Positions 8,408 through 8,717 of a stretch of 9,245 nucleotides of DNA are shown piece by piece. This DNA comes from a virus (lineage: Duplodnaviria > Heunggongvirae > Uroviricota > Caudoviricetes), in the IMG/VR virus record IMGVR_UViG_2675903654_000011; one strand, written 5' to 3'. The notes under the pieces are model-generated. The model worked only from the letters and a program-made list of their open reading frames with translations. It was not told the origin of the DNA and made no database searches. The translations under genes were made by a program, and so were the position numbers. How positions within the stretch are numbered: position 1 is the first letter of the stretch; every line of letters starts with the position of its first letter.

Positions 8408-8483
8408 GGCCCTTTAGCTCAGTGGTGAGAGCGAGCGACTCATAATCGCCAGGTCGCTGGTTCAAATCCAGCAAGGGCCACCA
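8408..8483 (+). tRNA. tRNA with CAU anticodon, ileX/ileZ-like (tRNA-Ile2 if lysidine-modified, otherwise Met)
   Basis: Acceptor GGCCCTT/AAGGGCC, D-stem GCTC/GAGC, anticodon loop CTCATAA, T-loop TTCAAAT, discriminator A, encoded CCA. Closely resembles recalled E. coli ileX. Confidence 0.85.
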
Positions 8484-8484
8484 A

Positions 8485-8561
8485 CCGCCACTAGCTCATC
8501 AGGAAAGAGCGTCAACCCTTTAAGTTGAGTGTGCGAGGTTCGAGTCCCCGGTGGCGGTCCA
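8485..8561 (+). tRNA. tRNA-like gene, isotype uncertain (positional anticodon UUU with a non-canonical C33)
   Basis: Acceptor CCGCCAC/GTGGCGG, D-stem GCTC/GAGC, anticodon stem TCAAC/GTTGA with loop CCTTTAA, T-loop TTCGAGT, encoded CCA. There is one A.C mismatch in the T-stem. It lies 1 nt after the previous tRNA. Confidence 0.6.
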
Positions 8562-8563
8562 GT

Positions 8564-8639
8564 GCCGACTTAGCTCAGTAGGTAGAGCAACTGACTTGTA
8601 ATCAGTAGGTCACCAGTTCGATTCCGGTAGTCGGCACCA
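8564..8639 (+). tRNA. tRNA-Thr (UGU)
   Basis: Acceptor GCCGACT/AGTCGGC, anticodon stem ACTGA/TCAGT with loop CTTGTAA, T-loop TTCGATT, encoded CCA. Confidence 0.8.
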
Positions 8640-8642
8640 TAT

Positions 8643-8717
8643 GCGGGCATCGTATAATGGCTATTACCTCAGCCTTCCAAGCTGATGATGCGGGTTCGAT
8701 TCCCGCTGCCCGCTCCA
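8643..8717 (+). tRNA. tRNA-Gly (UCC), glyT-like
   Basis: Acceptor GCGGGCA/TGCCCGC, anticodon loop CTTCCAA, T-loop TTCGATT, encoded CCA. Matches recalled E. coli glyT. Confidence 0.85.

Follow-up and report, generated by a model that had tools for sequence, protein, structure and literature searches.

Transfer RNA genes of virulent and temperate phages

Recent work has shown that phage tRNAs can defeat immune systems that cleave tRNA (PARIS, PrrC, and retron Eco7), in examples that come from virulent phages with large sets of tRNA genes. In Shiga-toxin phages, ileZ-argN-argO lies in the same slot of the late region as stx. The array considered here occupies positions 8408-8717 of a 9,245-nucleotide stretch of DNA (the window, in what follows), IMG/VR virus record IMGVR_UViG_2675903654_000011, from a virus of the class Caudoviricetes. 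The second of its four genes, tRNA2 (8485-8561), joins the anticodon UUU of a lysine tRNA to the body of an arginine tRNA of the argN family and carries C rather than U at position 33. I propose that tRNA2 may be a working Lys(UUU) decoder, insensitive to nucleases and held by weak, conditional selection, and I put the probability of this at roughly 40%.

There are two nucleases to bear in mind. AriB, of the PARIS system, cuts host tRNA-Lys and tRNA-Thr(UGU) at UAAUC/A (PMC12409363). The tRNA-Lys of phage T5 resists AriB through changes at positions 39 and 41, and a swap of the 31-39 pair alone suffices for resistance (PMC12409363, PMC11464382). PrrC, which recognises the anticodon stem-loop, cleaves the bond that joins positions 33 and 34 (PMC1950546), and a phage-borne tRNA-Lys rescues infection in the face of PrrC170 (PMC11555353). 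The general hypothesis that mutations in the loops of phage tRNAs let them escape anticodon nucleases is already in print, in a paper whose main text mentions neither position 33 nor prophages (PMC10264068).

Origin of the array

ARAGORN finds four tRNA genes on the + strand within 8408-8717, separated by A, GT, and TAT (1, 2, and 3 nt); each of them encodes its CCA end. Scores against the Rfam tRNA model (RF00005; gathering score 29 bits) are 72.5, 44.4, 73.8, and 64.9 bits for genes 1 through 4, with E-values from 9e-15 to 5e-07. The four matches are far beyond chance. PGAP annotates an identical locus as tRNA-Ile, tRNA-Lys, tRNA-Thr, and tRNA-Gly, none of them flagged as a pseudogene, and at least 80% of the array is present in about 601 of 5,426 complete E. 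coli genomes. The original prediction, made from the letters of the window, had described just such a tightly packed, CCA-encoding set, consisting of an ileX-like CAU tRNA, an atypical tRNA, Thr-UGU, and Gly-UCC, and had asked for isotypes and scores. ARAGORN and Rfam bear out the description, tRNA2 included, which scores well above the Rfam threshold.

The array is almost certainly a tRNA cluster from the late region of a lambdoid E. coli prophage, a mosaic of ileZ, argN, thrU, and glyT, in which thrU and glyT stand in the place of argO and gene 2 has left the arginine isotype through C35U (UCU to UUU) together with U33C. A lambdoid prophage of E. coli Z1323CEC0019 has 100% identity to the window across the 361 bases that were compared. 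tRNA1 (8408-8483, anticodon CAU, annotated tRNA-Ile), an ileZ-type tRNA-Ile2 that depends on lysidine to read AUA, is identical at 76 of 76 positions to the ileZ that lies beside stx2A in O157:H7 (L005). tRNA3 (8564-8639, Thr, UGU) and tRNA4 (8643-8717, Gly, UCC) are equally exact copies of K-12 thrU and glyT, at 76 of 76 and 75 of 75 positions.

Homology also settles where tRNA2 came from, namely the phage argN family, of which it is a member with a switched anticodon. Prophage genes annotated as tRNA-Arg that stand at position 2 of ileZ-argN-argO arrays in O157:H7, O104:H4, and others share 80-90% identity with tRNA2. The gene is 84% identical to argN of the O157 stx2 phage, with which it has in common a C1-G72 pair, A20, U73, and an A51.C63 mismatch. 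Its nearest relatives with the anticodon Arg(UCU) (IMG/VR loci L189, L190, L193, and L194) have the anticodon stem TCAAC/GTTGA, as does tRNA2, and the loop CTTCTAA. L193 differs from tRNA2 at 7 of 77 positions, and the differences within the anticodon arm are exactly U33C and C35U. No core E. coli tRNA matches tRNA2, since only 2,132 of the 5,426 genomes give any match at all, and the Lys-type version of the gene occurs in E. coli and Shigella only.

A change of this kind is not without parallel. Saks, Sampson, and Abelson reportedly recruited E. coli tRNA-Arg(UCU) to Thr(UGU) in 1998 by a change at position 35. As in their case, one substitution at that position would have moved an Arg(UCU) tRNA to an isotype whose synthetase reads the anticodon. 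Their recruitment was made in the laboratory, however, and kept U33, whereas that of tRNA2 is natural, leads to UUU, and goes together with U33C.

The original prediction set the array apart from the ileZ-argN-argO set of Shiga-toxin phages. This distinction does not survive: gene 1 is ileZ, gene 2 is a homolog of argN, and intermediate arrays exist. The intermediates, found in PPompW prophages and phage Evi, consist of ileZ, a Lys-type gene, and argO, and therefore link the two architectures directly. The arrays of the window and of phages of the 933W type also share a slot, between Q and the lysis or stx genes. What differs is the content. Gene 2 has UUU with C33, where argN has UCG or UCU with U33. 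Genes 2 and 3 bear UUU and UGU in place of the arginine anticodons UCG and UCU, and gene 4 is glyT, argO having given way to copies of host thrU and glyT. Directly upstream lies an AraC-family gene, not Q.

It was also predicted that the array is not a simple copy of the host operon thrU-tyrU-glyT-thrT, from the absence of tyrU. This stands for the operon but not for the two genes. The phage array lacks tyrU, thrT, and tufB, together with the spacers of the host (8 and 116 nt) and the host sequences that flank thrU and glyT, two genes that lie 3 nt apart in the phage, and yet tRNA3 and tRNA4 are the host genes to the last nucleotide.

Structure of tRNA2

tRNA2 had been judged atypical on three grounds, C33, a positional anticodon UUU, and an A.C mismatch in the T-stem, and all three are evident. 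The anticodon stem (8512-8516/8524-8528, TCAAC/GTTGA) encloses the loop CCTTTAA (8517-8523), which places C32 at 8517, C33 at 8518, U34-U36 at 8519-8521, and A37-A38 at 8522-8523. The anticodon (TTT in the DNA) is that of a tRNA-Lys of the lysT type, and a canonical elongator tRNA would have U at 8518. In the T-stem, A51 (8536) lies opposite C63 (8548). A different fold does not restore U33, since sliding the anticodon stem by one gives an A.A mismatch, and with 44.4 bits the gene is no pseudogene by score.

The original prediction left a choice between a specialised tRNA and one in decay. That remains the right choice, but the mismatch no longer counts as a sign of decay. The argN of the Stx2 phage has the same mismatch and scores 43.0 bits (other Arg-type members score 52-58 bits), and pair 51-63 varies within the argN family, where distinct sequences have G-C in 17 cases, G.U in 14, A-U in 5, and A.C in 16. 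The low score and the mismatch of tRNA2 are therefore family traits.

One may nonetheless suppose that tRNA2 is an argN inactivated by the mutations of its loop, carried along in a useful, co-transcribed array, and drifting towards a pseudogene. U33C would weaken the U-turn, and C35U would remove the main determinant for arginyl-tRNA synthetase (ArgRS). I take this to be a serious possibility, at something short of even odds. The structure of the window copy tells against it. Beyond C33 there is no defect of stem or tertiary structure: U8, A14, G18-G19, T54-Psi55-C56, and A58 are present, as is the 3' CCA, and the score is like that of the accepted argN of the Stx2 phage. The substitutions in the stems of tRNA2 mostly keep pairing (C4U, C11U, C2U), and one of them, C63U, repairs the mismatch. 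Copies identical to tRNA2, or changed in ways that preserve wobble, are carried by the isolated phages vB_EcoM-606R7, PhiR47_1, and Evi, which places intact tRNA2 in viable phages.

The family as a whole has the cloverleaf as its structure. Aligned to it, 97.4% of cells are paired, as opposed to at most 53% with the partners slid, and in four pairs both sides have changed. The minimum free energy (MFE) fold of tRNA2 as a single sequence gives no cloverleaf and is uninformative.

Cytosine at position 33

U33 has been described as nearly invariant, the exceptions being eukaryotic initiators (C33) and the Ser-tRNA(CAG) of Candida (G33) (PMC5041475). Bacterial synthesis of N6-threonylcarbamoyladenosine makes no base-specific contact with U33 (PMC13276492). 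In the argN family, C33 and UUU are found together. Neither single-step intermediate (U33 with UUU, or C33 with UCK) occurs in the family, in IMG/VR or in the 5,426 E. coli genomes; matches to the pattern U33 with UUU proved to be unrelated tRNA-Lys genes of giant viruses. When viral loci were retrieved through the 3' half of the gene alone, 115 of 120 were Lys-type, and in none of the 115 had C33 or UUU reverted. C32 and the stem do vary.

C33 is by no means peculiar to this family. A scan for C33 with UUU, the argN family set aside, found 53 viral contigs, 46 of them with a tRNA-Lys whose loop is CCUUUAA. These comprise 39 distinct sequences in about 29 clusters (less than 80% mutual identity), 53-73% identical to tRNA2. 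Nearly always the contig has no other Lys(UUU) gene, in tRNA sets of up to 27, and in one cluster the anticodon stem has undergone compensatory changes while C33 was retained. The recurrence of tRNA-Lys with this loop means that C33 alone is no mark of a dead gene. The very loop that was to have inactivated argN is thus in use, with compensatory evolution, in many unrelated phage tRNA-Lys genes, a second argument against drift towards a pseudogene.

The same scan bears on another way to read the loop. If C33 could not make the U-turn and U34 made it instead, then U35-U36-A37 (5'-UUA-3') would read UAA, and tRNA2 would be a weak ochre suppressor. The loop sequence CCUUUAA is all in tRNA2 that suggests this, and ARAGORN calls tRNA-Stop(tta) for three unrelated matches of the scan, whose loop is CTTTAAT. 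Seven-membered loops, however, read 34-36, and a shifted anticodon would leave only one nucleotide on its 3' side. I know of no precedent for shifted reading, and find it scarcely credible here.

Among phage tRNAs in general, about 2% have C33, judging by a roughly unbiased sample (L503-L613), and among the other tRNAs of those phages that have a C33 tRNA-Lys the figure is 9.5%. Examples of C33 tRNAs are found at IMG/VR loci L334-L502 (such as L335, L342, and L358). C33 tRNAs matched by body belong for the most part to Ile(GAU), Asn(GUU), Thr(UGU), and Val. The idea that C33 is a signature specific to phage tRNA-Lys had to be given up, as lysine accounts for only 2 of the 112 C33 tRNAs sampled and the tRNAs of T5 all have U33. 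The literature searched contained no description of frequent C33 in phage tRNAs, and nothing relevant on ileZ/argN/argO or on phage tRNAs without U33.

A possible lysine decoder out of reach of anticodon nucleases

Suppose that tRNA2 is still made and still folds as a tRNA. C35U would then shift it from ArgRS to lysyl-tRNA synthetase (LysRS), because LysRS reads mainly the anticodon, and the product would be a Lys(UUU) decoder of modest power whose body is not of the Lys type. Such a tRNA would be of use when a defence nuclease directed at tRNA-Lys fires, sustaining the decoding of AAA/AAG as the tRNA-Lys of T5 does. The other three genes would have a plainer task, ileZ, thrU, and glyT supplying the AUA, ACA, and GGA codons enriched in the prophage. 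Since the advantage of tRNA2 would be conditional, selection on it would be weak and its decay frequent.

The means of escape would come with the body. Where the host tRNA reads UAAUC/A, tRNA2 reads U36-A-A-G39-U40-U41, with a C31-G39 pair. The motif of AriB is absent because the anticodon stem is derived from an arginine tRNA (C31-G39, U40, U41). C33, for its part, is on the 5' side of the bond cut by PrrC. tRNA2 combines, as a resistant phage tRNA should, the anticodon UUU with altered bases at the site of the nuclease.

The closest functional parallel is the nuclease-resistant tRNA-Lys of T5 and SP15 (against AriB of PARIS and against PrrC170), which is likewise a phage-borne decoder with UUU and a stem altered at the AriB motif. 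The alterations are A39 and C41 in T5, as compared with G39, U40, and U41 in tRNA2. The T5 tRNA, however, has a bona fide Lys body and U33, belongs to a virulent phage, and has been shown by experiment to be resistant, whereas tRNA2 has an Arg-derived body, C33, and U73, belongs to a temperate phage, and is known here from sequence alone.

The proposal can be put in a stronger form, which I hold only tentatively and think on balance unlikely. In temperate lambdoid phages, two substitutions in the loop might have turned an arginine tRNA into a defence-proof lysine decoder, C35U by placing UUU on a body that PARIS does not recognise, and U33C by changing the base 5' of the PrrC cut. C33, present in about 2% of phage tRNAs and in no fewer than 29 independent lineages of tRNA-Lys, with enrichment in Ile(GAU), Asn(GUU), Thr(UGU), and Val, would then be a recurrent and so far unremarked signature of selection by host nucleases of the anticodon loop, and not of damage.

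Codon supply and amino-acid identity

Might tRNA2 be simply an extra, ordinary tRNA-Lys for the AAA and AAG codons of late genes? The original prediction had suggested a comparison of codon usage, and this was made against typical K-12 usage. ATA is used 2.4 times as often in the prophage as in K-12, ACA 2.0 times, and GGA 1.5 times; genes 1, 3, and 4 are therefore explained by codon supply. AAA is not enriched (1.1 times overall, 0.8 times in late genes), and the rare arginine codons AGA, AGG, and CGA still are (2.6-4.5 times), so tRNA2 is not explained in this way. Its position in the late region, beside other readers of NNA codons, would suit plain supplementation, as would the use of AAG, at 1.6 times that of K-12. 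The host, however, already has multiple genes of the lysT family, and a non-Lys body with C33 and U73 is a poor way to add capacity. I find this account very improbable. The same figures favour inactivation of an argN, since the loss of an arginine decoder is not adaptive by codon supply where AGA, AGG, and CGA are enriched and AAA is not.

As to the amino acid, annotation pipelines go by nothing but the anticodon when they label tRNA2 as tRNA-Lys; its body and its identity elements are of the Arg type. The identity set of E. coli ArgRS consists of A20, C35, and G/U36. tRNA2 has A20 and U36, but with U in place of C35 the set is incomplete. LysRS prefers A73 and reads mainly the anticodon; tRNA2 has U73, and its body descends from the argN family rather than from a lysine tRNA.

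It is conceivable that such a tRNA either misreads or does not read at all. It could be charged with arginine by way of A20, so that arginine would replace lysine, an effect damped by C33, or it could remain uncharged and act as a decoy for nucleases of tRNA-Lys. A20 has indeed been kept, and the discriminator is U73; G33 is said to damp decoding in the Ser-tRNA(CAG) of Candida. C35, on the other hand, is known to be a major determinant for ArgRS, and charging with arginine should be very poor. In favour of misreading, the only well-known cellular elongator tRNA without U33 is itself identity-switched (PMC5041475). With respect to a decoy, Belukhina et al. suggest that phage tRNAs may bind immune effectors in complexes that are not productive (PMC12409363). 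The recognition motif, which one would expect an AriB decoy to retain, is absent from tRNA2. Taken together, misdecoding and decoy seem to me improbable.

Some position-2 tRNAs of related arrays pose a problem of identity of their own. The acceptor pair G3.U70 is found in argN of the O157:H7 stx2 phage (L005, 401-477) and in the corresponding genes of PPompW (L002, 3082-3157) and Evi (L333). G3.U70 is the major identity element for alanine, and its presence in the 'argN' of the Stx2 phage raises the question of which amino acid is accepted.

Variation and decay among relatives

Nucleotide diversity over 89 four-gene arrays is 0.005 for tRNA1, 0.013 for tRNA3, 0.014 for tRNA4, and, computed outside the arm used for selection, 0.028 for tRNA2. 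The flanking DNA could not serve as a reference for the neutral rate, the downstream region being a mosaic between phages (diversity 0.24). Two sublineages of tRNA2 are common. In the Ec042 type, the gene carries C4U, U8C, and C11U, and in the PPompW type one base of the D-stem has been lost through a 1-nt deletion. Judged by the features of tRNA pseudogenes, namely stems that are broken, invariant bases that are missing, or a covariance score below threshold, tRNA2 of the window shows only C33 and lies above threshold, while its Ec042 and PPompW relatives fall below it.

These results, and several given above, weigh against a working decoder under selection. tRNA2 is the least constrained member of the array. 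Both common sublineages carry changes that would be expected to damage the tRNA, miss an Rfam E-value of 0.01 or less, and are not called by PGAP. In E. coli, 279 records match tRNA2 at 99% identity or better, as against about 472 at 95-99%, mostly unannotated. Charging may be poor or ambiguous, with A20 kept and U73 where LysRS prefers A73. The AriB motif survives in the thrU copy, so that the array is not a complete anti-PARIS set. The tRNAs of T5 with proven resistance all have U33, C33 is not specific to lysine, and nothing ties C33 to the evasion of PrrC.

Much of this is what one would expect if an inactivated argN were being lost: the most diverse gene of its array, with frequent sub-threshold types (U8C in one, the D-stem deletion in the other) that go without a PGAP call. 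By contrast, 22 of the 24 listed matches at 79-90% identity, the range of Arg-type genes (H81-H104), are annotated tRNA-Arg. Restriction of the Lys-type gene to E. coli and Shigella indicates a young clade. Related arrays contain other members with odd loops and a degenerate look, for example the argN-like gene of phage YeP1 (L003, 3002-3079), annotated pseudo-TTG, whose loop CATTGCC has A33, UUG, and C37. Against this, the degraded sublineages amount to two events only, and the neighbours of tRNA2 occasionally carry disruptive variants too, as with T11C of glyT in 12 of 97 arrays. Frequent decay, as already said, is also expected of a nuclease-insensitive decoder whose benefit is conditional.

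Two other changes of anticodon were seen in related arrays. In four of them (L042, L060, L076, and L080) the thrU copy has gone from UGU to UUU through G35U, accompanied by A26G and with a normal U33, and PGAP calls it tRNA-Lys. The converted thrU sits in arrays with a degraded gene 2 of the Ec042 type. It was considered as evidence of selection for UUU and rejected as too rare, at 6 of the 5,426 genomes (such as NZ_CP025842), probably one clone. In Serratia proteamaculans (L204), a glyT-like body with UUG follows an Arg(UCU) of the argN family.

Other elements of the prophage

In related phages the Q antiterminator is directly upstream of the array, and S-R-Rz lies downstream. The window also has genes for DUF1367, YbcO, and a DUF1133/Q-like protein. 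The AraC-family regulator gene that occupies the place of Q lies at 7666-8379 and stops 28 nt upstream of the array. A candidate sigma-70-like promoter (TTGATT-17-TATTAT, 8369-8397, + strand) overlaps its 3' end; the consensus scan gave 4 sites where 2.3 were expected, which is weak support.

Between the array and a P21-type holin gene (9010-9225) there is a structured trailer of about 240 nt (8718-8955, + strand). It has perfect hairpins of 11 bp (8724-8734/8759-8769), 14 bp (8777-8790/8836-8849), and 9 bp (8848-8856/8894-8902), closes with an intrinsic terminator (8925-8950), and has an MFE z-score of -5.4. The region 8690-9020 matches no Rfam family. At the equivalent position in the arrays of O104:H4 and 21B8 lies the small RNA STnc100, and the motif GATGATGGGA is common to the trailer of the window and a spacer between tRNAs of the Yersinia phage YeP1.

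Two further modules lie upstream. Matches to isrK (6267-6344), C4 antisense RNA (6370-6454), and the C4 a1/b1 target (6254-6307) fall downstream of the DUF1133/Q-like gene and just upstream of an ORF6N antirepressor gene (6508-7089). The whole, 6254-7089, looks like an antirepressor control module of the P1/P7 type or of the IsrK-AnrP type of Gifsy-1, in a lambdoid prophage. At 3910-4234, sok antisense RNA (112.6 bits) and the beginning of a hok/gef-family toxin gene overlap, and the two make up a type I toxin-antitoxin module in the early region of the prophage.

What tRNA2 may mean

The array is already annotated in public genomes, and the idea of counter-defence by phage tRNAs has been published. 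If tRNA2 is only a relic of argN, then the finding is an ordinary one, a prophage cluster of tRNA genes, well annotated, of which one is decaying. If tRNA2 works, a temperate phage would provide a case of a counter-defence tRNA, and tRNA2 would at the same time be a natural switch of isotype by mutation of the anticodon, present in hundreds of E. coli genomes, in the slot that in other phages holds the tRNAs associated with Shiga toxin. The most promising lead is the recurrence of C33 in phage tRNAs. Its frequency, if confirmed by a proper census, would qualify the invariant U33 of the textbooks for the tRNAs of viruses.

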